From a virus: DNA of 64,000 bases. A program made the translations under genes and the position numbers. Under the pieces are notes generated by a model. The model searched no databases. It worked only from the letters and a program-made list of their open reading frames with translations, and was not told the DNA's origin. Of the stretch, positions 3,335 to 60,925 are shown piece after piece. The stretch is taken from the IMG/VR virus record IMGVR_UViG_3300037483_001670, positions 118,424 to 182,423 of that record; one strand, given 5' to 3'. How positions within the stretch are numbered: position 1 is the stretch's first letter; every line of letters begins with the position of its first letter.

Positions 3335-3703
3335 ATGACTCAGTCAATGGACATCACCACTCCGCTTCGAACAACCAAGCCGTGGACGTGCGACACCTGC
3401 CACGACCCGATCGCGGCAGACGCTGGCTATATTGCAGTAATGGACGCCGCCACCCATGGCCATCCTAACGAGGCGCCGTCTGCCGACTCCCCCCAGATTC
3501 ACATTCACGCGTACCATCGTGCCTGCGACCCGCATCCGGACAAGGAACCGTACTGGTTCGACGTGGCGCGAGCTGACACGATCGAGAAGTGGTGCTCGTG
3601 GGTGCGCCAGCTGGGCACAAAGCCTTGGATGAACGCCGGTGACCTCGCTCAGATGGTCTGCTTCTGGTTTGACAACCGGGACGAGCGACTTCCCAACCCA
3701 TGA
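3335..3703 (+). CDS. hypothetical Zn-binding phage protein
   Basis: WTCDTCH...YHRAC; ATGA-coupled to next gene. Confidence 0.7.
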   Translation: MTQSMDITTPLRTTKPWTCDTCHDPIAADAGYIAVMDAATHGHPNEAPSADSPQIHIHAYHRACDPHPDKEPYWFDVARADTIEKWCSWVRQLGTKPWMNAGDLAQMVCFWFDNRDERLPNP

Positions 3704-4188
3704 GATACTACATCGACACGGAGTTCATCGAACGCGGCCACCGGTACCCGATCGAGCTCATCTCGATCGGCGTAGTCGCCGAAGACGGCCGCGAATATTA
3801 CGCGGTGGCCAGCGACGGCTGGGACGAATCGCACGCAAGCGAGTGGGTGCGCACGAACGTCTTACCGAATCTCGGCGAGCTCGACGCCAACTGGCGAACG
3901 CCTAGGACCGCTATCGCGCAGAACATCATCGACTTCGTTGGAACGGACAAGCCAGAGTGGTGGTCGTACTATGGCGACTACGACTGGGTCGTTTTCTGTC
4001 AACTCTTCGGCTTGATGATCGATCTTCCGAAGGGGTGGCCGATGTTCTGCCGGGACCTCATCCAACTCTGCAAAGACCTCGGCAACCCCGAGCTCCCGAA
4101 GCAACTCGTCGACCGGCACAACGCGATCGAAGACGCCCGCCACTTCCGCGTGATGCACGACTTTCTGCTAGCCTTGCAGCGCAAGTGA
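3700..4188 (+). CDS. 3'-5' exoribonuclease, RNase AS/Rv2179c-like (DEDDh)
   Basis: YYIDTEF, LISIGVVAEDGREYYAV, YYGDYDWVVFCQLFG, HNAIEDAR. Confidence 0.9.
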   Translation: MRYYIDTEFIERGHRYPIELISIGVVAEDGREYYAVASDGWDESHASEWVRTNVLPNLGELDANWRTPRTAIAQNIIDFVGTDKPEWWSYYGDYDWVVFCQLFGLMIDLPKGWPMFCRDLIQLCKDLGNPELPKQLVDRHNAIEDARHFRVMHDFLLALQRK

Positions 4189-38635: not shown

Positions 38636-39298
38636 TCAGTCGAGTTTCATCTTCAAGAGCGTCTGGGCCCGCCCTGCGGCTTCCAGCTCGCGCGGCCCTG
38701 CGACGCCGTCGAGCAAAATCCATTTCTCACTTTTCGGCTCTTGCGCCGTGATCGCCACGTGCGAGAGCTTCCCCGGCGCGAATCCCATTGCGACGAGCGT
38801 GACGTTGCGGCCGATGGTGAGGCACATCGTCGCCGCCATCGTCGAGACGTCGTCACAGTCGACGACGGTCGAACCGTAGGCGTTGATCTCTTCGACCTGG
38901 CGCTGCGGGTCCTTCACCATCTCGACGTGCCGCGGATCGTTCGCGTACCGAAAGAGCGCGATGCCGGGCACCCAAGGACTCGGTTGCACGAACACGTTGC
39001 GAATCGCGAGGATTTCGCCGAGGTAGTCCTTCGGCTGCACGCCGCGCAGCGCCCACTCGGTGAACTGCCGCACCTCCATGGAGCGCTCGCCGCGCGCGCC
39101 GAGGGCCGCGTCCGCCATCTGTTTCAGCGTCGTCTCGGGTCCGCGAAACGGCCGCACGGTGTACGAGCTCGGCCGAAACGCGGCCTGCTCGGCCGCAAAC
39201 CCAAGGAACCCGCCGCCCACGCTCGCGCCGCCCGCCAAAGCTTGCGGCATGAGCGGCATCCCTGTGCGAGCGTTTTTCTCTACCAAGCTGAACGACAT
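38636..39298 (-). CDS. transglutaminase-fold cysteine protease (Cys-His-Asp)
   Basis: RYANDP..VE, VVDCDDVSTM (Cys), LSHVAI (His), WILLDG (Asp). Confidence 0.8.
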   Translation of the reverse strand: MSFSLVEKNARTGMPLMPQALAGGASVGGGFLGFAAEQAAFRPSSYTVRPFRGPETTLKQMADAALGARGERSMEVRQFTEWALRGVQPKDYLGEILAIRNVFVQPSPWVPGIALFRYANDPRHVEMVKDPQRQVEEINAYGSTVVDCDDVSTMAATMCLTIGRNVTLVAMGFAPGKLSHVAITAQEPKSEKWILLDGVAGPRELEAAGRAQTLLKMKLD

Positions 39299-39310
39299 GC
39301 GTGTCCCGTT

Positions 39311-39333
39311 GGACAACGCTCAGCTCGAGGTCC
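39311..39333 (-). promoter_or_regulatory. conserved hairpin element copy 4
   Basis: GGAC-CTCGAGCTGAGCGTT-GTCC, 12 nt upstream of protease ATG. Confidence 0.65.
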
Positions 39334-45896: not shown

Positions 45897-47381
45897 GTGA
45901 CGGACGAAGCACAAATCGTCGTAAAATATCGTTGCCTCCGCGATCTCGTTTTTGCGGCCGACAGCGGCGTCGACGTCGACGGATCGCTCATCAACCGGGT
46001 GCGCTGGGAAGAGGAGCTTTGCCGGCAGGCGATGGAGACTCCCCACGCGGTCGTCTCCCAGAAGATCCCGTCGGCGTATTTCGAAGTGCACGACTACCGG
46101 CTCATGTGGCGGGCGCTCCAGAACCTCCTGCCGTTCGTGCCGGTGGGCTTGCCGGTACCGCGAGGTCTCCTCCTTGCGAAGCTCGGCGAGGAGGAGCCGA
46201 AGTATTTCCGCGGCCACGCGGGCATGACGTGGCTCGACTACATCATGGACCAGGCCGCGTGCGGCCTACGGTTCGCGCTCGAACACCTCGCGCCGGTGTT
46301 GCATGCCCGGCACGACATGAAGCACTGGAAGTCGCGCAACCACGAGTTCATCGAGCTGCTCGACAAGACGACCGACCCGATCCTCCTGCACACCGAGTGG
46401 CGGAGCGAGGCGTACAACATGTCGCTCGCCCACGACGGCGGCGCGGTCGGCAAGACGGTGAACCAGCTCATCCGCGGCTGGGACGCAGCGGACAAGGACA
46501 ACCGCAACATCATTCGCACCGGGCTCGAGCACATCGACAAGTACAACGCCGGCGGCCACGGACGCGGGGAGCTGATGGTGATCGGCGGCGGGACCGGACA
46601 CGGCAAGTCGTTCTGCGCGCAGCGGATCATGCGTGCGCAGGCAGCGATGAAGCAGCGCGCGCTCTACATCTCGGTGGAAGACGACGCCGACCTTTTCACG
46701 GCGCGGTTCATCGCCGACTATAGCAGCGAAACCACGACGGGGGCCGTTTCGCCGGCCGACATTCGGCAGAAGAAGGTGGACCCGGTCCACGTCGACGAGA
46801 TGAAGGCGATGGCGGACGACGAACAGGGCGACACGCTCTATTTCTTCCATGCGAAGAAATGGACGGCGTCGCGCATCTGCGACGTGATCCGCAGGCACCG
46901 CTACCTCTGCGGGGTCGATCTGGTCATCGTCGACTACCTCCAGGCGATCTCGCCCGATGAGGTGACGAACCAAAAAGCGAACGACACGGCCATCATCGTC
47001 AGCCAGCTGAAGGCGTGCTGCGGTGATTGCGAAGTCGCGCTCATTTTGCTGTCGCAGTACGCCCGTGACGAGTACCGCGGCGGGATCGAGCCGACGATCA
47101 CGAGCTGTAAATGGAGTGGGGACATCGAGAACGAGTCGGAGGTCATGCTGCTTTTGTGGCGGGACGAAGCGGACGTGCTGCACGCGAAGATCGCCAAGCT
47201 CAAGTGGGCGAAGTCGGCGGGACGGCGCTTCATCATTCCAACGAACGACATGACCGGGTGCATGATGGACTGGGAGGACGATTTTTCGCAGCCGCAGCAG
47301 CAACAACAGAAGGGCGATCGGCGCGACCGGCGCGGACGCAACGGGAAGAGCCGCGCCAGCGGCGAAATGGGCGAAATATGA
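45897..47381 (+). CDS. dnaB: DnaB-like replicative helicase
   Basis: Walker A GGTGHGKS, LYISVED, LVIVDYLQ, LLSQ, SGDIENESEVMLLLWR. Confidence 0.9.
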   Translation: MTDEAQIVVKYRCLRDLVFAADSGVDVDGSLINRVRWEEELCRQAMETPHAVVSQKIPSAYFEVHDYRLMWRALQNLLPFVPVGLPVPRGLLLAKLGEEEPKYFRGHAGMTWLDYIMDQAACGLRFALEHLAPVLHARHDMKHWKSRNHEFIELLDKTTDPILLHTEWRSEAYNMSLAHDGGAVGKTVNQLIRGWDAADKDNRNIIRTGLEHIDKYNAGGHGRGELMVIGGGTGHGKSFCAQRIMRAQAAMKQRALYISVEDDADLFTARFIADYSSETTTGAVSPADIRQKKVDPVHVDEMKAMADDEQGDTLYFFHAKKWTASRICDVIRRHRYLCGVDLVIVDYLQAISPDEVTNQKANDTAIIVSQLKACCGDCEVALILLSQYARDEYRGGIEPTITSCKWSGDIENESEVMLLLWRDEADVLHAKIAKLKWAKSAGRRFIIPTNDMTGCMMDWEDDFSQPQQQQQKGDRRDRRGRNGKSRASGEMGEI

Positions 47382-48505
47382 ACGCGCGCAAGACGCTCAC
47401 CGTGCGCGAGGTCGGCCAAATGTTCGGGCTCGATCTCCCTGAGCCTGGTACCGGGAAACGATCGCGATCGAAGTGCCCGTTCCGCAAACACAAGCGCCGC
47501 GACCCAACGTTCCGCGTCTTTCCTGCGCGCGCCGATTCTAAATGTCTTTGGAAATGTTGGTCTTGCGATCCACCCGACAACGTCGGCGACGCGGTGACGC
47601 TCTACGCGCGGCTCGCGAGCATTGACCGCAAGACGGCGTGGAAGAAGCTGCTCGGCGACGGGTACGCGGTGCCGGGCGCGAGGGACGACTACGAGGGGCG
47701 GGGCGAGGGGGGCGGTCCGACGAAGGCCGAGCTCGAGCGGCGGGCGTACGAGAAGGAACAGCGCGACACGATCCACACGATTCCGGTGACGGGTGTCCGA
47801 CCGGAGAAAATCCTTCCCCTTCCGCGCGAGCGCTGGGAGCGCTGGGCGGCGCGTCACACTGGGGGCGTCGAGAAGTTTGCGGCGAAACGTGGCATGAGCG
47901 CCGAGTTTTTGCGCGAACACGGCGTGATCGACATGGGCGGGCCGTTCGTCGGCTTCACGTACTTTGACCCAACGAACGGTCAGCCCTGCCGGGTCAAGGT
48001 GCGTGGCATCGAGGAAAAACGCTTTTGGGTCGAGCCGCGCCCGCCCGAGGGTGACGACAGCGGCGCTCGAGCGAACGACGTCCTCTACCTGGCGCACGAG
48101 CTCCTGCGCACCACCCGTCGCGAGCCGATCATTTTGACCGAAGGGGAGCCGGACGCGCTCGCTATCCGGTCGACGGGGCTCATGAACGTGCTCTCTTTGC
48201 CGGACGGCAACGAGTCGGCGAAGACGGCGGATCTGTCGCCGATCCACGGGCGCTACACGACGTGGTTCGTGGCGATGGACAACGACAAGCCGGGCGACGA
48301 CGCGGCCGAGGTGCTGCGGGCGCGCAGCTGGGGCATGACGGTTCTACGGGTCAAGTGGTGTCGGATCGTGGCCGGCGAGCTCGAGTACTACAAGGACGCG
48401 AACGCGGCGCTGCTCGCCGGGTTCCAGCGCGAGGACTTCATTCGCTGCCTGGAGATGGCGGCGAAGGACAGGTTTGTGCAGGTCGAATGGCGGGTGGCGA
48501 GCTAG
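47378..48505 (+). CDS. DNA primase (Zn finger + TOPRIM)
   Basis: CPFRKH...WKCWSC; ILTEGEPDAL; AMDNDKPG. Confidence 0.9.
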   Translation: MNARKTLTVREVGQMFGLDLPEPGTGKRSRSKCPFRKHKRRDPTFRVFPARADSKCLWKCWSCDPPDNVGDAVTLYARLASIDRKTAWKKLLGDGYAVPGARDDYEGRGEGGGPTKAELERRAYEKEQRDTIHTIPVTGVRPEKILPLPRERWERWAARHTGGVEKFAAKRGMSAEFLREHGVIDMGGPFVGFTYFDPTNGQPCRVKVRGIEEKRFWVEPRPPEGDDSGARANDVLYLAHELLRTTRREPIILTEGEPDALAIRSTGLMNVLSLPDGNESAKTADLSPIHGRYTTWFVAMDNDKPGDDAAEVLRARSWGMTVLRVKWCRIVAGELEYYKDANAALLAGFQREDFIRCLEMAAKDRFVQVEWRVAS

Positions 48506-52573: not shown

Positions 52574-53082
52574 CGCGGCGCCGGGTCGATCAGGACGAGT
52601 GGCGCATCCTCGTGTTGATCCCGCAGTGGAAGTTTCTGACTGTGGAGAGCCGCAAGCGCCTCCTTCGTCGGAAAGCGGACGTCGTCGAGGAGGCCGTTGT
52701 CCGTCAAAAGGTGGAGCGCAAGGTCATCGCCTACGCGCGTGTCAAACGGCAGCTGATGTTTTACACGGCAACCGGCGACTACGATCCGATGCCGGAAAGG
52801 ATCGTGCTCGAAGTGCTCGCTCCCGACTCGCGCGACCAGCAGGATCTTGATCGGCAGGTGCGGCTCGACGGTAAGCAGCTCGTCGTAGTACGCTGGAAAA
52901 ACAAGGCGCGACTTCTCTTTGCAAGCGACGTCGCGCGAGTGGACCGCGGCGAGTACCAGCGGTATTGGAGCGAGCATGGGACTACTGAGGAAAGTGGGTC
53001 TGGCGTTCAGGAAGGCGCTCACGGAGGTGGCGGCGGCGGAAGCGGCGGAGCGAACGGCTCCAGCTCCGGAGGCTTCGACTGA
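52570..53082 (+). CDS. hypothetical protein
   Basis: GTGA coupling. Confidence 0.55.
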   Translation: MTRRRVDQDEWRILVLIPQWKFLTVESRKRLLRRKADVVEEAVVRQKVERKVIAYARVKRQLMFYTATGDYDPMPERIVLEVLAPDSRDQQDLDRQVRLDGKQLVVVRWKNKARLLFASDVARVDRGEYQRYWSEHGTTEESGSGVQEGAHGGGGGGSGGANGSSSGGFD

Positions 53083-53566
53083 TGATGCCGAGCGAATGCT
53101 CGCTTCCATCACGATGGGCCTCCAGCAGGAGATCGAGTTCTACATGCGACGGTCGCAGGAGTACTTTGCGCTGATCGCGAAGATGGAAGCGCAGCGTGAA
53201 GAATGGCGCCTCCTCTACCGGAACGATTCGCTCGGGCATCAGAACGCGCAGACGCTCTTGCAGGAGGCGCTCGTCACCTCGCGGACGCAGCTCTACCGCG
53301 CCATCCAGATGATCAACGCGTTTCGAGCCGAGAAAAATCTCGCGCCGATCGCCGACGAAGTCACGCTCGAGCGCGAGCTCCGCGCGTTTCCGGTGGGCGT
53401 GGCGGAAGAGACGGCGAAGCGACTTGCCGTCGAAAATACCGCCGTCGCACCGCAGATCGACCCTGTCGCGGAGACCGCGAAGATCGACGCGGAGATCCCC
53501 GTGCCCGAGGGTGTCGTCGACGAATCGCACGCGCCGGCGCCCGAGACCGATCCCCAAACCTCTTGA
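52976..53566 (+). CDS. coiled-coil hypothetical protein
   Basis: helical composition. Confidence 0.65.
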   Translation: MGLLRKVGLAFRKALTEVAAAEAAERTAPAPEASTDDAERMLASITMGLQQEIEFYMRRSQEYFALIAKMEAQREEWRLLYRNDSLGHQNAQTLLQEALVTSRTQLYRAIQMINAFRAEKNLAPIADEVTLERELRAFPVGVAEETAKRLAVENTAVAPQIDPVAETAKIDAEIPVPEGVVDESHAPAPETDPQTS

Positions 53567-53590
53567 CGTTCGGCTCGGTTCACGTATCGT
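53563..53590 (+). promoter_or_regulatory. putative promoter TTGACG-16-TATCGT
   Basis: upstream of core/capsid operon. Confidence 0.55.
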
Positions 53591-53666
53591 GAAGGTTAGC
53601 AACGACGTCGGCTGACCCCTAGCAGTAGGTCCGACGTGCCGTGTGAGTTCGCACCGGTACGTCCAG

Positions 53667-56222
53667 ATGGCCAAAGGGTACACCCGCAAAATCACCCGTA
53701 AGCAGGCGCTCAGCTACGAGCGTTTGACACCGAACGGCATCGGCGTGACCGCCATCGCCGCGGTGAACGGGCGTCGGCGCAAGAAGAAGCCGGCGCGCAA
53801 GAACGCGTCGCGCGTGAAGAGCGTGTGGCGCGCGATCACGAGGGGCGCGGCCCCGACGACGCGGCGCCGCGCGAAGCGGCCGCTGTTGCGCGCTCGGTAC
53901 ACTGCGGTCGGCGCGCGGAGCGAGCTTCGTCACCTGAAGAGCCAGAAGCGCTTCACACCGGCCGAGCTGAAGTCGCTCGGGCGCGGCGGCCGCGTGAAGC
54001 GAGGTGGGTCGACGTACTACAGTCCGTACCTCTCTGGGTTTGCGCGTCAGCGCGGTGGTCGCGGCATTACGGCGAACCCTGGCGAAGCGCCGACCTGTCC
54101 TCCGGCAGCGACAGCAAATCGGCGGCGCAAGAAGAAGGGCGGCAAGGGTGCTGACTACCAGCGTCGTTACCGCCAGACCCGCGCCATTTTGGAGGCTCCC
54201 GTGAAACGCAGAGGCTCACGACGGCGGATTGCCGGCATGCCGGTCATCCCGATCACCGAAGAGCACGAGTGGACGCCGCACGTCGTACGCGGTCGGCGCC
54301 GGCGTCGTGCTTCGACCAAGGAGACAGCGATGAAGAGAAGGGCGAAGAAGCGTCGGACGCCGGCGCAGCGTGCCGCTTTCAAGAGGATGATCGCGGGGCT
54401 GAAGGCCTACAAGCGCAAGCAGGGTGGTGGTGGTGGCCGCAAAAAGGCGCGCCGCCGGGGCCGACGGAGCTACGCCGCGAACCGCAAGCTCACCAAAGCA
54501 CAGCGGAGAGTTGCGGGTCGGAAGGCGGCTCGAACGCGAAAGCGCAAGAAGGCAGTGCGATCTGCGGCTGCGAAGAAAGCAGCCCGGACCCGCAAGCGTC
54601 GCGGAGGTCGGAAGGTGCGGCGCAACGCGCGTCGACGCGCGCCGACGGCGACGTACGTCAAGAACCGCAAAGGTCGACGGGCAAGCTTCGCGCGGGTGAC
54701 CGCGACCGTCGGCAAGAGGAAGGTCAAGACCTACCTCTACAAGACCAAGCGTGGCGGCGTGAAACACGTTCCGGTGTACGCGCTCGCGGGCATGCGCTCG
54801 CGAAAAGCCATGGGCGCTGCCCTTCAAAAAGGCGGCAAGACAGCGGATCGGATTCGCCGGCGCGTGGCGGCGATTCGACGCCAACGAGAGCGAGCGTCGC
54901 GACGTGTGATGTTGCACGGCGACATTTTCACCCCCAACCGCGGGACCAGTGTCCCGTTTTCAACGTGGAGTAAGTCCATGAGACCGAACCGTCGCAAGAG
55001 GAAGTCAACGTCGCGGAGCTCCAAGCGGAGCCGAGCAGCCAAGAAGGCAGCGCGTACGCGCAAGCTGAAGCACGCGATCCGGGTGCGAGCGGCCAAGAAG
55101 GCTGCCCGTACGCGTCGTCGCAAGGGCGGCGGTCGTCGGCGGAAGAAGTACTCCGCGAACCGTCGCGGGCTCGCGCTCGTGAACCGCAAGCGTCGTCGCA
55201 GCCGCAAGGGCACGAAGAAGGTCACGCGTCGTCGTCGCCGTCGTGTCGCAGCGGCAGCGCCGGTGAAGCGCCGTCGTCGTCGCTCGAGCGGGCGTCGCAA
55301 GCGCTACGCGGCCAACCGCCGTCGTCGGTCGTACGCGAGCTTGCCGGCCAAGGGTCCGTTCTACGCGAACCGCCGTCGTCGGTCGCGTCGCCGGTACCAC
55401 GCGAACGCCTTCAAGGCGAAGGACTTCATGAAGCAGTTCACCGGGGCGCTGAAGCTCGGTCTCGCGGTGTCCATCGGCTTCATCGGTCACCGAGCTCTCT
55501 CGAAGGTGCTCTCGAGGGGCCTCGTGAGCATGGGCGCGGGCAACACGCTCGGCACTTGGACCGACACGGTCGCTCAACTCCTCGTTGCGGGTGGCGGCAT
55601 GCTCGGCCTCGCGGCTCTCGGCGAGAAGCGCAAGCCCTCGGAACGAGCGGCCATCGGGCAGGTCAACGCGGGCGTCTTCGGATCGTTCGTGCATGCCCTC
55701 GTCACGATGCTCGTTCGCCAGGCGGCTCCGCAGTACACCGAGTACCTCTCGGGGTACCCGGATGCGCAGGGTCGGGCGTTCTCGGAGTACATCGCCACCA
55801 GCGGCTTCGGTTCGCCGATGCTTTCGCAAGCGGCGGCGGGCTTCGGTCAGCATCCGATGCTCTCGCAGGCGGCTGCGGGCATCGGCGAGTACATCGCCAC
55901 GAGCGGCTTCGGTCAACCGATGCTTTCGCAGGCGGCTGCGGGCATCGGCGAGTACATCGCGACGGGCGTCAGTGGCATCGGTGACTACGAAATGGTCGCC
56001 GGTACCGGCAGCGCCTTCGGAGTCGAGGACGACGGCATCCGCCCGAACCTCGATTCGGCCGAGCACGCGCTCAACATCGCCGAGGCCGCTGCCGGCGTCG
56101 GAATCGGAGACCTGCCGACCTCGAGTCAGCAGTACCCGATGATGGTCGCGAAGCCGATCTCGGACGTGCCCACCGGGGCGCGCGCGGGTTCGTTCGCGGG
56201 TCAAAACGGCATCTTCGGCTGA
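53667..56222 (+). CDS. Arg/Lys-rich protamine/H1-like DNA-condensing core protein with hydrophobic C-terminal domain
   Basis: about 580 aa of R/K runs, 4x KAARTR, 15 Asn mostly in hydrophobic-x-x-N context; then 3 hydrophobic helices and EYIATSGFG..PMLSQAAAG repeats. Confidence 0.8.
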   Translation: MAKGYTRKITRKQALSYERLTPNGIGVTAIAAVNGRRRKKKPARKNASRVKSVWRAITRGAAPTTRRRAKRPLLRARYTAVGARSELRHLKSQKRFTPAELKSLGRGGRVKRGGSTYYSPYLSGFARQRGGRGITANPGEAPTCPPAATANRRRKKKGGKGADYQRRYRQTRAILEAPVKRRGSRRRIAGMPVIPITEEHEWTPHVVRGRRRRRASTKETAMKRRAKKRRTPAQRAAFKRMIAGLKAYKRKQGGGGGRKKARRRGRRSYAANRKLTKAQRRVAGRKAARTRKRKKAVRSAAAKKAARTRKRRGGRKVRRNARRRAPTATYVKNRKGRRASFARVTATVGKRKVKTYLYKTKRGGVKHVPVYALAGMRSRKAMGAALQKGGKTADRIRRRVAAIRRQRERASRRVMLHGDIFTPNRGTSVPFSTWSKSMRPNRRKRKSTSRSSKRSRAAKKAARTRKLKHAIRVRAAKKAARTRRRKGGGRRRKKYSANRRGLALVNRKRRRSRKGTKKVTRRRRRRVAAAAPVKRRRRRSSGRRKRYAANRRRRSYASLPAKGPFYANRRRRSRRRYHANAFKAKDFMKQFTGALKLGLAVSIGFIGHRALSKVLSRGLVSMGAGNTLGTWTDTVAQLLVAGGGMLGLAALGEKRKPSERAAIGQVNAGVFGSFVHALVTMLVRQAAPQYTEYLSGYPDAQGRAFSEYIATSGFGSPMLSQAAAGFGQHPMLSQAAAGIGEYIATSGFGQPMLSQAAAGIGEYIATGVSGIGDYEMVAGTGSAFGVEDDGIRPNLDSAEHALNIAEAAAGVGIGDLPTSSQQYPMMVAKPISDVPTGARAGSFAGQNGIFG
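55786..55970 (+). repeat. tandem coding repeats EYIAT(SGFG)/PMLSQAAAG(I/F)G x3
   Basis: gagtacatcgc and ccgatgct.tcgca repeated three times. Confidence 0.8.
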
Positions 56223-56384: not shown

Positions 56385-57152
56385 ATGGCCAAGCTCACCA
56401 ACGTTCGCGAGCGCGTGCATCAGCCGTTTCGCGACAGTCTCGTCCGCACGAGCGGCTGGTTCGTCGGCAATCTGACGGACCGGACCGATCTCTTCACCCA
56501 GGCCGGCAAGGACGACGCGTCCACCAACCTGAAGAACGGCTCTACGCTTCCGTCCGACCAATCGATGGTCGTGCTGGCGTGCCGCGTCTTCTCGTGGTTC
56601 CGCCAGTCGATTCAGCGTTCGGCAACCACCATCGACGTCGGCAACGTGTGGTCGCCGGCGGATCGAAACGGCGATTTTGCCATCGCGGCTGCCAACTTCG
56701 GCACCGCGGGCGTGCTGCTCAATGGATCCACGGTGGGCGACGTCCACGACGTCTACCGTCTCCACTGGCAGTCGTCCGAGCAGCTCCTCTGGAGCTTCGG
56801 AGCCGGTGACAAGTTCTCGATCACCTCGATGCCCTCGGCGTACTTCCCGTACGGCGGCGGTCTCCATGGCGACATGGGCGGCGTGACCGACCTCATCCAC
56901 TGGAACAACGGCTTGCCGGACCACACCGGCATCCTGCGCCTCGCCCGCGCGATCCTCCTGCCCCCGCGGCAGAACATCAAGTGCCAGGCTCAAATCGTCG
57001 CGCTGCCGGACGGCGGCAACTCGGCGACCTTCGGCCTGACGCAGGGCGCGCGCAGCATGCTCTCGCTTACCTCCAACCTCAATGCGGTGGACGGCGTCGG
57101 CAAGAGCGTGTCGTTCACCTTCGACGGTCTCTTCTCCCGCGACGTTCAGTAG
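56385..57152 (+). CDS. major capsid protein candidate (single jelly-roll-like)
   Basis: 255 aa beta-rich, QPFRDS..LF...TNL...LPSDQSMVVLACRV...ILLPPRQNIKCQAQI...VSFTFDG; flanked by stem-loop and terminator; follows core protein. Confidence 0.6.
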   Translation: MAKLTNVRERVHQPFRDSLVRTSGWFVGNLTDRTDLFTQAGKDDASTNLKNGSTLPSDQSMVVLACRVFSWFRQSIQRSATTIDVGNVWSPADRNGDFAIAAANFGTAGVLLNGSTVGDVHDVYRLHWQSSEQLLWSFGAGDKFSITSMPSAYFPYGGGLHGDMGGVTDLIHWNNGLPDHTGILRLARAILLPPRQNIKCQAQIVALPDGGNSATFGLTQGARSMLSLTSNLNAVDGVGKSVSFTFDGLFSRDVQ

Positions 57153-57331: not shown

Positions 57332-58438
57332 ATGTCACAAGGTATGCCGGGCGCAGTCAATATCGGTCCGCAGCTCTCGCAGTTCGCGCAGCAGATGCGT
57401 TCGGAGGTTCAGGGAGTTCTGAACAACCATGCGCAGTGGGTGCGCAAGGCCACCGCAGAGCAGCTCGGTGTCTTCGACGCGAGGCTCGGTGAGCTCTCCA
57501 AGATCGCGCAGGCCCTAGCGGCGACGCGCGCAGGGGGCGAGGGCATCAACTGGGAGCGTCGAACCGATCGCGGCATCGTCCGCATCGAGGACATTCCAGG
57601 ACGGCGGGTACCGTTCACGCTGCTGATGGACATCCCCATCGGCAACAACACGACCTCGCAGCGCGAGCAGTCGGTGACGATTTCGCAGGAGGGTCCGTTC
57701 GTCGCCGTGAAGCGCATGGCGACGTTCCAGTCGAGCCTCCAGTTTCAGGTGACGTCGGGCTCTGCAACGGCGATCTTCGCCGGCCGATCGTTCGGACGCT
57801 ACCGGCCCATTCATTCGGCCTGGGATATCTTCGACGCGCATGGGCAGGCGGGCTACGACGGTTCGCTGGTCTTCCGCGATCTCGTGCGGTCCGCCGGCGC
57901 GATCGATCTCTCGCAGCCGATCAGCGGCACGCCCGCAGGCACTGCGCCCTTCCCGGTCATCCTGGGAGCGCCTCCCATCGTGTCGGCGGTTTCGAACTTT
58001 CGCACCATGGAGTTCGACGGTCGCATCCTCGTCATCAACGCGGGCTCGAGCTACCCGAGGCAGAACATCTCGGTGCCGAGCTCGATGTGGAGCCCGCAGA
58101 TCAACGCACCGCAGGAGCTCGGGGCCCTCGACTTCTTCGAGCGCGGCGAGATCATCACCGTGCAGGTGCAGCCGAACCACGTCAACAACCCCCCGGCGGG
58201 CAACGCGAACGGCAACACGCTCTTCAACCTGGGCGCGGCCGCAACGCCGTTCCCGTTCGAGAATGGGCAGTACGACCCGCACGAAGGGATCGCGACGCTC
58301 TCGGGGCTCACGGTTACCGCGGTCGGTCCGCGCCAGGTGGGGGGGCTCGCCACCGACATCATCCAGCGTCTGCCGGACGGTATCCTTACCATCGGCTGGG
58401 AAGGCTACCGAATCATTCAGCCGGTCGGGCCGGTCTAG
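57332..58438 (+). CDS. second capsid/penton candidate (jelly-roll-like)
   Basis: SVTISQEGPFVAVKR...GRILVINAGSSYPRQN...IITVQV...LTIGWEGYR. Confidence 0.55.
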   Translation: MSQGMPGAVNIGPQLSQFAQQMRSEVQGVLNNHAQWVRKATAEQLGVFDARLGELSKIAQALAATRAGGEGINWERRTDRGIVRIEDIPGRRVPFTLLMDIPIGNNTTSQREQSVTISQEGPFVAVKRMATFQSSLQFQVTSGSATAIFAGRSFGRYRPIHSAWDIFDAHGQAGYDGSLVFRDLVRSAGAIDLSQPISGTPAGTAPFPVILGAPPIVSAVSNFRTMEFDGRILVINAGSSYPRQNISVPSSMWSPQINAPQELGALDFFERGEIITVQVQPNHVNNPPAGNANGNTLFNLGAAATPFPFENGQYDPHEGIATLSGLTVTAVGPRQVGGLATDIIQRLPDGILTIGWEGYRIIQPVGPV

Positions 58439-58441
58439 CCT

Positions 58442-59362
58442 ATGTCTGGTGGTATGAACCGCCAAGACGCTCTCAAGCTGCTCAAAGATTTTGGGCGGAC
58501 GGGGGGCCTGGGTGCGGCGCCCGAGTTGGCGCCGCAACAGGGCCCTCCTGCGCCCGCTCCGAACGCAATGACGCCCGCTCCGCTGAAGCCTGCGCCTGCC
58601 GTTGTGTTCGCTCCCGCTCCGGGTCCGCCCTCTGCGGCGAACGCGGGGGAGCTCGCTGGTCAGACGGTGGGGCCGCCCGGGATGGGCGTTCCGCCGACCG
58701 ACGTGCACCAGGCTGGTGGCGAGCTCCTCGCGCGCCTTCAGCATCCGGAGTTCCAGACGATGGAGGAGCTCTACCGGATCCTTCCGGAGGACAGCTGGTT
58801 TCAGCCGAGCGTTTCGCCGGGCAACCCGATCCAGTTCGAGCTCGGCTCCTTCACTGTGCCAAACAGCCAGCATTACTGGCTCTTCGACTACGAATTTTCG
58901 ATCTTCCGTTTCAGCGGCCTCGACGCCGGCGACATCCTGAAGTCCGAAGCGGGGCGCTACTCCGGCGTCATGGGCTTCGACGTCACGATCGACGGACGTC
59001 GGCCGTCGCACTTGCTCTACCAGCTCGATCCGCAGCCGGCACAGCTTCAGCGCCAGACGTTCATTTCGTTCAACGCGCAGGGCGGCACCAACAACAACAG
59101 CGCGTTCAACCGATCGACGGCGCAGAGCTTTGCGGCGACCGCGTCGCAGGGCACCTCGGTCTTGCCGGTGCGCCGCGCGATGCAGGGGCCGGAGGGGATG
59201 CCGTTCACGTTCATCGCGAGGCAGCAAGCGAAGGTGTCGCTCTCCATCATCATCTTCAAGCGGGTGCTGACGCCGATCGCGGCCGTCGAGGGGCGGCACG
59301 CTGGGTACCTGCTTCAGTCGAGTCTCGCCGAATCGCTCATCCTTCGCATGAGGCCGAGGTAA
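58442..59362 (+). CDS. third capsid-like protein, Pro/Ala-rich N-arm + beta-sandwich
   Basis: IQFELGSFTVPNSQHYWLFDYEFSI...FTFIA...VSLSIIIF. Confidence 0.55.
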   Translation: MSGGMNRQDALKLLKDFGRTGGLGAAPELAPQQGPPAPAPNAMTPAPLKPAPAVVFAPAPGPPSAANAGELAGQTVGPPGMGVPPTDVHQAGGELLARLQHPEFQTMEELYRILPEDSWFQPSVSPGNPIQFELGSFTVPNSQHYWLFDYEFSIFRFSGLDAGDILKSEAGRYSGVMGFDVTIDGRRPSHLLYQLDPQPAQLQRQTFISFNAQGGTNNNSAFNRSTAQSFAATASQGTSVLPVRRAMQGPEGMPFTFIARQQAKVSLSIIIFKRVLTPIAAVEGRHAGYLLQSSLAESLILRMRPR

Positions 59363-60682: not shown

Positions 60683-60925
60683 ATGGCGTGCCCCGGTTGC
60701 CTCGTCGCAGTTGCCGGCCCCGACGACGTGAGTACGTCGGAAGGGTCGAGCACTGCGAGGTTGGCGAAGGGGGCGGCCATCTTTGGCGGCGGGGTCATCG
60801 CTGGCATCGTGGTCGCGACGGTCTTCGCGCTCCGTGATGCGGAAAAGATGCTCAGCGAGCGGCGCGGTTACGCTCGCAACCGTCGCAAGCGGTACCGGCG
60901 AAACTGCGGTTGTGGAGGACACTGA
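60683..60925 (+). CDS. small TM protein with basic YxRN tail
   Basis: TM then GYARNRRKRYRRNCGC. Confidence 0.7.
   Translation: MACPGCLVAVAGPDDVSTSEGSSTARLAKGAAIFGGGVIAGIVVATVFALRDAEKMLSERRGYARNRRKRYRRNCGCGGH

Follow-up and report, generated by a model that had tools for sequence, protein, structure and literature searches.

A conserved protamine-like protein with hydrophobic-x-x-Asn sites in an undescribed lineage of probably tailless bacterial viruses

The prevailing view is that bacterial viruses package their DNA naked, by means of a motor. Protease-trimmed, protein-condensed cores are a feature of adenoviruses, asfarviruses and poxviruses. To our knowledge, tailed phages trim internal head proteins but build no protein-condensed core. 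Here, we describe a gene starting at position 53667 of a 64,000 nucleotide stretch of viral DNA. This stretch, called the window below, is the final 64 kb of an IMG/VR virus record of 182,423 bp (IMGVR_UViG_3300037483_001670; the genome is referred to as G000). The gene encodes a large basic protein, fused to a hydrophobic domain, in which most Asn residues are preceded at position -3 by a large hydrophobic residue. Our tentative explanation is that this hydrophobic-x-x-Asn motif marks sites of proteolytic maturation. Coordinates of all features are in Table 1.

Several described systems resemble this arrangement in part. In phage T4, gp21 cuts internal proteins and capsid-targeting sequences at (L/I)-x-Glu; head proteins of phiKZ and SPN3US are cut at (S/A/G)-x-Glu. 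The resemblance is that these bacterial viruses package basic or internal proteins, which they trim at a short motif whose P1 residue is fixed. They differ from the probably tailless lineage described here in being tailed viruses of the HK97 fold that use prohead serine proteases and have Glu at P1. None of their internal proteins is a protamine-like polyprotein or membrane-anchored, and the prohead protease type, family S78, has no match in this genome. Adenovirus pX joins a basic peptide to a hydrophobic C-terminal part. The adenovirus protease AVP (adenain) cuts basic core precursors at (M/I/L)XGG-X or (M/I/L)XGX-G (PMC4246237). Shared with pVII and pX (the mu precursor) are the Arg-rich and, here presumably, DNA-condensing character of the protein, short sites (putative here) with a large hydrophobic P4 residue and the setting of a jelly-roll capsid lineage, for which the window has a candidate. 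Conversely, the AVP consensus is not found in the basic domain studied here, where sites have the form [YFML]-x-x-Asn; Gly-type motifs occur only in the C-terminal domain. AVP belongs to clan CE, whereas the sole candidate enzyme here is transglutaminase-fold, and the adenovirus precursors are small separate proteins rather than one 851-aa (amino acid) chain with a predicted membrane anchor. Searches with the 859-aa query returned no Pfam family at E <= 0.1 and no PHROGs family; by these searches the protein has no sequence similarity to adenovirus core proteins pVII, pX or V.

A further parallel is ascovirus P64, a virion protein of 64 kDa and isoelectric point 12.2, whose abstract describes a basic repeat domain that condenses the genome of a 100-200 kb double-stranded DNA virus (PMC6163548). 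As in our case, where condensation is only probable, it is an unusually large cationic protein. It differs in coming from an insect virus, the abstract mentions no membrane anchor, Asn motif or processing, and homology between P64 and the protein encoded in the window is not detectable. The sequence-only reading had called core protein maturation unusual for a bacterial virus. This is a fair statement; neither 'protease' nor 'proteolytic' appears anywhere in a 2019 review of membrane-containing phages (PMC6356626).

Residues of the basic protein are numbered from the GTG at 53643, so that the ATG at 53667 is Met9. The latter is the likely start, since the N-termini of homologues read MAKGLTR.... 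Residues 1-588 include 69 Lys, 144 Arg, 3 Asp and 10 Glu, with a net charge of +200. This composition (36% Lys plus Arg, with Lys alone at 12%, and 2% Asp plus Glu) is like that of protamines and histone H1. Residues 589-859 are close to neutral and rich in Gly and Ala. The C-terminal domain also carries a second, Gly-type motif, comprising conserved PMLSQAAAG[FIVY]G repeats, a GxxGIG(D/E)YE element and a ...GxxGIFG C-terminus. Tandem DNA repeats are present only at 55803-55968, within this domain. The region is of low complexity, and many spurious open reading frames (ORFs) overlap the gene. An AlphaFold2 (AF2) model was made using 69 sequences in the alignment, with a mean predicted local distance difference test score (pLDDT) of 60. 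In this model residues 504-587 are a disordered Arg tract and the Gly/Ala-rich tail is disordered save for helix 803-816. The central folded module contains positions G357, G371, P377, G383 and R415, which are invariant, or nearly so, in the alignments. When the full-length model was compared with PDB and BFVD, using Foldseek, nothing meaningful and no known fold emerged; the top rows were 3-helix membrane subunits, below significance. The central module likewise had no PDB or BFVD match.

The basic domain (residues 1-588) contains exactly 15 Asn. Eleven have L, I, V, M, F, Y or W at -3 and the remaining 4 have Ala. The 11 sites are LTPN31, ITAN145, YAAN280, VRRN328, YVKN341, FTPN432, MRPN449, YSAN506, YAAN558, FYAN576 and YHAN588. 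Since hydrophobic residues make up 18% of the region, the binomial probability of at least 11 in 15 is 4.3e-6. Translation thus confirms the counts (11 of 15 Asn in a basic region of about 580 aa) from which the sequence-only reading began. Its placement of the last site at the boundary to the hydrophobic domain was also correct; YHAN588 is 4 residues ahead of the first predicted hydrophobic helix. All motif sites are in predicted coil, between helices or domains. The sites use differing codons in differing contexts and are not DNA-level repeats. Among the other proteins of the genome there is no excess of hydrophobic-x-x-Asn (330 observed against 326 expected). Two simple roles for the motif were considered and rejected. 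A helix N-cap role was dismissed because only 2 of 11 sites are within 5 residues of a following predicted helix. Internal translation starts at the Met of M-x-x-N were dismissed because the enrichment there is equally strong for Tyr and Phe.

Conservation was examined in homologues of the protein. A word-based search that took the C-terminal domain as query gave 27 homologues, 554-1105 aa long, and an exhaustive profile search found 261, each representing one 50%-identity cluster. The basic and hydrophobic parts are fused in every case. Lys plus Arg accounts for a fraction of 0.28-0.37 of the basic N-terminal region in all 27 first homologues, and the median is 0.33 in 100 further homologues. 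Sequence logos were built for 447 Asn in 28 homologues and for 1273 Asn in these 100 full-length cluster representatives, which had not been used before. The two sets gave the same motif. At position -3, Tyr was enriched 6.1-6.5-fold over background, Phe 6.7-7.4-fold and Met 4.9-5.3-fold; Arg was at 0.2-0.3-fold. The corresponding values for Leu and Ala, in the 100 further homologues, were 2.0 and 1.3. Pro was enriched 5.0-5.6-fold at -1 and Thr 1.8-2.9-fold at -2; Arg, Gly, Ala, Lys or Pro follow the Asn. The enrichment is confined to the -3 spacing, with information one-sided, on the non-prime side. Control logos for Gln, Ser, Thr, His, Gly and Pro had no -3 bias. The binomial probability over the 100 further representatives is ~1e-182, a value that overstates independence because the sequences are related. 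The sequence-only reading had named loss of the motif in homologues, beforehand, as grounds for giving the idea up. The motif is kept in the 100 further homologues and Asn588 in 69 of 69 sequences; the idea survives.

The alignment of 69 sequences resolves individual sites. At the invariant Asn588, Y or F occupies -3 in 59 of 69 sequences, and the following residue is most often Pro (19), Ala (17), Gln (10), Val (7) or Gly (6). At site 432 (F-[TS]-P-N) Phe is found in 63, Pro in 69 and Asn in 67 of the 69. At site 449 (M-x-x-N), Met is present in 54 and Asn in 59, followed by Lys, Arg or Ala. Towards the N-terminus, Asn31 is found in 57 of 57 aligned sequences, with Pro at -1 in 53, and Asn42 in 57 of 63. 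Conserved Asn are never replaced by Gln and only once, at N42, by Asp. When close homologues are compared, no residue type of the basic domain is conserved better than Asn (74%, with Trp at 59% and Arg at 53%). In these sequences, sites 558, 576 and 588 retain both the P4 residue and Asn, and site 506 retains Asn; positions -2 and -1 (P3 and P2) vary freely. Each protein has a median of 6 strict sites (range 1-17). Gaps between sites vary widely, with 6-11 residues as the mode, and are not periodic.

This family has not been described before, as far as our searches show: Pfam, PHROGs, PDB and GenBank phages gave no match, and nothing relevant to this lineage, or to a virion protease directed at Asn, was found in the literature. 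Naturally split genes, with the basic part and anchor encoded separately, were considered and rejected, because the short matches proved to be contig-end or gene-calling artefacts. Public gene calls on truncated contigs (P0152, P0156, P0167, P0169 and others) start at the Met of an internal M-x-x-N or at the hydrophobic domain. Such calls create false short family members; at locus L006 a single frame runs through. The copy in genome G002 (L018, G002:C1:51887-52684) has one in-frame TGA in an otherwise open 821-aa frame, which could be a sequencing error, a pseudogene or recoding.

We tentatively favour the explanation that the motif is the P4-P1 segment of endoproteolytic maturation sites in the basic domain, and would put this at a little short of an even chance. 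The motif resembles an enzyme recognition code because it combines a strong P4, a moderate P2 and P1', an absolute P1 Asn, a free P3, a linker location and an invariant boundary site. Information restricted to the non-prime side is likewise a property of caspase-, 3C- or adenain-type sites. The simplest way to read this pattern is as proteolytic maturation. The gene product would be a genome-condensing core protein of an undescribed lineage of probably tailless bacterial viruses, of 110-180 kb, with a jelly-roll-like capsid candidate. The +200 domain, with its H1-like basic helices, small folded module and disordered Arg tracts, probably binds and neutralises viral DNA, and the three hydrophobic helices probably tie the protein to a viral membrane. 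A recognition motif of the form [Y/F/M/L]-x-[P/A/R]-Asn, followed by R, K, A, G or P, would then punctuate the basic domain. A cut at Asn588 would release the DNA-bound part from its anchor. Cuts at the clustered sites before Asn588 would yield Arg-rich peptides of ~6-20 residues, analogous to the VII and mu that adenovirus makes from pVII and pX. We infer DNA binding, virion location, membrane anchoring, cleavage and the enzyme alike.

The topology of such a protein needs to be considered. The PRD1 membrane is pinched off the cytoplasmic membrane. With a membrane of PRD1-like origin the +200 domain should stay on the cytoplasmic face, which becomes the outside of the vesicle. Hence, contact with DNA implies either another assembly route, in which the genome is condensed and then wrapped, or release by cleavage. 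Two complete relatives with terminal repeats, G001 (143,727 bp) and G003 (111,584 bp), were included in searches for packaging and capsid genes. Terminase_6N, HK97 Phage_capsid and FtsK_SpoIIIE had no Pfam match in G000, G001 or G003. The lack of a recognisable packaging ATPase fits a condensation-driven route, although an absent Pfam match is weak evidence.

The only candidate that we can name for the cutting activity is a 226-aa transglutaminase-fold protein encoded elsewhere in the window, and the candidacy is weak. The sequence-only reading had named it as the protease to be used in a cleavage assay; it is neither adenain-like nor legumain-like. Residues C154, H186 and D203 are invariant in 6 orthologues, with the triad in conserved order. 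Three of the 6 orthologues match PF01841 (Transglut_core), with a best E of 4e-7. A PF01841 search of this genome gave no match, the enzyme itself included, though its Atlas language-model features reach 0.96 to Transglut_core clusters. The enzyme profile found nothing in PDB sequences or PHROGs, and tblastn found nothing in GenBank phages. The gene is present in 5 of 5 IMG/VR relatives and is one of 15 genes common to G000, G001 and G003. The enzyme is homologous (hhalign 96.9%, E 1.5e-10; hmmsearch 5e-12) to gp34 of phage SSIP-1 (JN880423 21296-22210; L039:6297-7211), a transglutaminase-fold Cys-His-Asp protein that GenBank annotates as 'structural protein'. Since gp34 is both homologous and annotated as structural, in a tailless membrane-containing phage, the enzyme family is plausibly carried in the virions of such phages. 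Apart from this enzyme, SSIP-1 (43.8 kb) shares no tested gene with the lineage, the capsid candidate p368 included. The transglutaminase fold can act as a motif-specific endopeptidase, as in LapG. A complex prediction for the enzyme with residues 540-610 of the basic protein scored 0.02, which gives no verdict and was counted neither way. The N-terminus of the enzyme reads [GP]-F-x-G in all six orthologues, with F57 and G59 invariant.

A number of observations weigh against the conjectured cleavage at the motif. Pro follows Asn at ~10% of sites and at 19 of 69 boundary sites, and X-Pro bonds resist most endopeptidases. The first two conserved Asn (PN[GP] and VNG) resemble turns of a small conserved module rather than cut sites. 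Of the other Arg-rich runs in this genome, 118 in all, not one follows the motif, which is rare in G001 and G003; motif-bounded Arg tags are also rare in loci L001-L005. With the motif essentially confined to one protein, a general maturation protease would have essentially one substrate. SSIP-1 has the enzyme homologue but no homologue of the basic protein, and the Gly-type motif may be the real target of the enzyme rather than the Asn motif. Searches of the genome for C13, C14, C48 (Ulp1) and, besides S78, Trypsin_2 and ClpP gave no match. The legumain and caspase families (PF01650 and PF00656) had no match at E <= 1 in G000, which is estimated to be 73% complete, and divergent enzymes could escape. 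Similarly, PF02902 (C48) had no match in the genome; PF00770 (C5) was not searched, and divergent clan CE members could be missed. Kyte-Doolittle peaks of the hydrophobic helices, with a 19-residue window, are marginal (1.3-1.6) and membrane insertion is therefore probable rather than certain. Of the processing substrate proposed by the sequence-only reading, the protein itself stands: it is real, conserved, fused to an anchor-like hydrophobic domain and heads a capsid-gene block, with sites in predicted coil. Its cleavage stays conjectural and sits uneasily with Pro after Asn.

The same evidence can be read without any cut. The protein may stay intact, as a membrane-anchored DNA condenser, with the hydrophobic-x-x-Asn units as DNA-contact, turn or docking elements in which an aromatic or Met wedge accompanies a base-contacting Asn, partly in SPXX-type T-P-N-R turns. 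Thr at -2 and Pro at -1 give S/T-P-x-x-like turns, Pro after Asn would be tolerated, and restriction of the motif to this one DNA-binding protein of the genome is accounted for, as is the failure to find an Asn-specific protease. A precedent is the uncleaved ascovirus P64, a 64-kDa cationic protein that can condense viral DNA (PMC6163548). Set against this, the conserved Asn almost never gives way to Gln, Asp, Ser or His, which is stricter than expected of a hydrogen-bonding contact. In addition, only the -3 spacing is enriched, with one-sided information, the gaps are broad and not periodic, and contact with DNA is not needed at the position of the invariant boundary Asn. We regard an intact protein as a serious contender, if on the unlikely side. 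A giant protamine tethered to a membrane in a phage would, even uncut, be a new way to organise a bacterial virus genome. An artefact of composition or alignment in a low-complexity ORF, with its many spurious overlapping frames, is effectively refuted; the probabilities of 4e-6 in one protein and ~1e-182 in related representatives (the latter overstating independence), the lack of such a context around other residues, the absence of a DNA repeat and 261 homologue clusters with conserved synteny all speak against it.

Two further explanations invoke chemistry at Asn, and we give each a small chance. PNGase and the glutaminases of the transglutaminase fold act on amide side chains. The Asn side chains here could be substrates for isopeptide cross-linking to Lys, or for deamidation, by the transglutaminase-fold enzyme, or for glycosylation by the two core GT4 glycosyltransferases. 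That enzyme is the only core enzyme with a nucleophile triad, the requirement is strict for Asn over Gln, and Lys is abundant in the domain. However, we are aware of no case in which an enzyme of this fold cross-links Asn to Lys, the N-x-S/T sequon is absent, bulky glycans or Asp on a DNA-binding tract would oppose its function, and SSIP-1 has the enzyme without the substrate. Such modification is improbable. Assembly-dependent self-cleavage at Asn, through a succinimide as in asparagine lyases, might apply at least to the boundary site, though the chance is slim. Precedents are the coat proteins of nodaviruses and tetraviruses, reovirus mu1 (Asn42-Pro43) and YscU/FlhB (N-PTH), in MEROPS families N1, N2, N6 and N7. 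Asn588 never varies, the residue after it is P, A, Q, V or G, and Asn-Pro and Asn-Ala are the bonds cut in known cases. The site parts the cargo from a hydrophobic, possibly membrane-active part, as in those proteins, and a protease with Asn specificity was sought and not found. Conversely, known lyases cut single sites within folded proteins and need a folded catalytic pocket. Here there is a median of 6 sites, mostly in a disordered Arg tract (pLDDT ~40 over residues 504-587), with Asn588 abutting helix 592-629. A conserved P4 residue is also more typical of recognition by a trans-acting enzyme.

Returning to proteolytic maturation, the fullest form of the proposal is that an undescribed, widespread lineage of 110-180 kb viruses condenses its genome with a membrane-anchored +200 polyprotein, which Asn-specific cleavage converts to many short Arg peptides, by means of either a transglutaminase-fold virion cysteine protease or Asn-succinimide chemistry. 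Taken as a whole, this scheme is doubtful. The trimming of virion core proteins at a short motif is a known concept; new here would be the Asn specificity, the single giant chain with its predicted anchor and the bacterial-virus setting. As a cleavage code, the Asn motif would amount to a protease specificity new among viruses. It would mean that adenovirus-like core maturation, with a new cleavage specificity, evolved in bacterial viruses, and would offer a direct handle on how these uncultured viruses assemble and release their genomes. In any event, these viruses have a protein family, absent from Pfam and PHROGs and comprising 261 or more clusters at 50% identity, each copy of which brings ~200 positive charges.

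The basic protein gene is followed directly by a three-gene block. The order of the basic protein and products of ~255 aa, ~325-390 aa and ~240-310 aa is kept in 7 of 8 related loci examined. The remaining locus, on the P0025 contig, has downstream products of 392, 320 and 282 aa. For p255, Atlas leads to PRD1 P2 and P3 are weak (score 0.76-0.77). The protein p368 has more than 677 homologue clusters, those listed being ~50% identical or more, and no Pfam family. Its AF2 model (pLDDT 62) combines a long helix with a beta sandwich. VIA-align Z scores were 7.3 for the PBCV-1 capsid chain, 6.5 for SPV1, 6.1 for STIV A223 and 5.9 for HCIV-1, all below the confidence level of the tool; the model is weakly suggestive of a jelly-roll-like capsid candidate. 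We found no match to p368 in GenBank phages and no similarity to SSIP-1 gp40 or gp41. The pentapeptide PRQNI occurs in both p255 and p368, at a conserved position of each alignment, although hhalign detects no homology between the two. We sought conserved hydrophobic-x-x-Asn sites in the capsid candidates and found none convincing.

The sequence-only reading had also noted a YxRN motif, twice, in the basic tail of an 80-aa ORF downstream of this block. Both copies (YARN and YRRN) are present. The ORF ends ...RGYARNRRKRYRRNCGCGGH and its tail is the only other Arg-rich run in this genome that carries the motif. The copies are not conserved; orthologues keeping the tail were sought in related loci and none was found.

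Table 1. Features of the window, in window coordinates (AF2 features are predictions)
Feature	Position	Strand	Details
Gene of the basic protein (candidate polyprotein)	53667..56222	+	851 aa from ATG, 859 aa from GTG 53643; basic domain, hydrophobic helices, Gly/Ala-rich tail
Promoter-like site TTGACG-16-TATCGT	53563..53590	+	Upstream of the basic protein gene; consensus match only; 1 found vs 0.1 expected in shuffles
Arg/Lys-rich domain	53667..55406	+	580 aa, net charge +200, 15 Asn
Conserved N-terminal segment KGxTRxITRKQALSYxRxxPNxxGVTAIAAVNGRGA	53667..53780	+	Holds near-invariant Asn31 and Asn42 (alignments A1, A5)
Basic alpha-helix, AAKKAARTRK-type repeats, residues 285-319	54495..54599	+	AF2 helix, block pLDDT ~73-84
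Central folded module, residues 350-425, ARVG..TY.Y.TKKG...HIP	54690..54917	+	Beta-hairpin and helices; AF2 pLDDT 85-95
F-T-P-N432 site	54927..54938	+	Directly past folded module; coil after helix 399-425
M-R-P-N449 site	54978..54989	+	Alignment
Second basic AAKKAARTRK helix, residues 464-495	55032..55127	+	AF2 helix, block pLDDT mostly 67-81
Disordered Arg-rich stretch	55149..55406	+	Sites YSAN506, (ALVN514), YAAN558, FYAN576, YHAN588; pLDDT ~40
Boundary site Y-H-A-N588	55395..55406	+	Junction of basic and hydrophobic domains
Three long hydrophobic helices, residues 592-629, 640-662, 665-702	55416..55748	+	Probable membrane anchor; AF2 block pLDDT ~69-85
Gly/Ala-rich C-terminal domain	55749..56219	+	PMLSQAAAG[FI]G repeats, helix 803-816, conserved ...GxRAGxFxGxxGIFG end
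Transglutaminase-fold Cys-His-Asp enzyme	38636..39316	-	226 aa; candidate maturation enzyme; Atlas, triad, orthologue matches
215-aa protein	52919..53566	+	Syntenic: tblastn matches just upstream of the basic protein gene in L002-L005
p255, capsid candidate	56385..57152	+	Core gene with the highest conservation; identity 70% (G001) and 56% (G003)
p368, capsid candidate	57332..58438	+	N-terminal long helix and jelly-roll-like beta domain
306-aa protein	58442..59362	+	Third gene of conserved block; synteny, core gene
80-aa ORF	60683..60925	+	Hydrophobic stretch and basic tail with YARN, YRRN

The relatives are viruses of 110-180 kb, and 15 of 225 crude gene calls are common to G000, G001 and G003. 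These include the basic protein, the three capsid candidates, the transglutaminase-like enzyme and the two GT4 glycosyltransferases, together with a DSP-like phosphatase, a Cas12f-like protein and a 1210-aa integrase-domain protein. Pfam and PHROGs searches with ~35 neighbouring proteins gave very few matches. Some core genes are located upstream of the window: GT4 proteins of 783 aa (L036:1163-3514) and 366 aa (L036:10070-11170), the DSP-like protein of 155 aa (L036:12135-12602) and the 1210-aa tyrosine-recombinase-domain protein (L038:85-3717). Within the window, positions 3700-4188 encode a 162-aa protein with an Rv2179c-like 3'-5' exoribonuclease domain (E 1.2e-9), conserved in G001. DnaB-like helicase and Toprim (primase-like) ORFs, at 45897-47381 and 47111-48505, are located between two divergent structural arms. 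Because the listed ORFs overlap by ~270 bp, the start of the second is probably further downstream.

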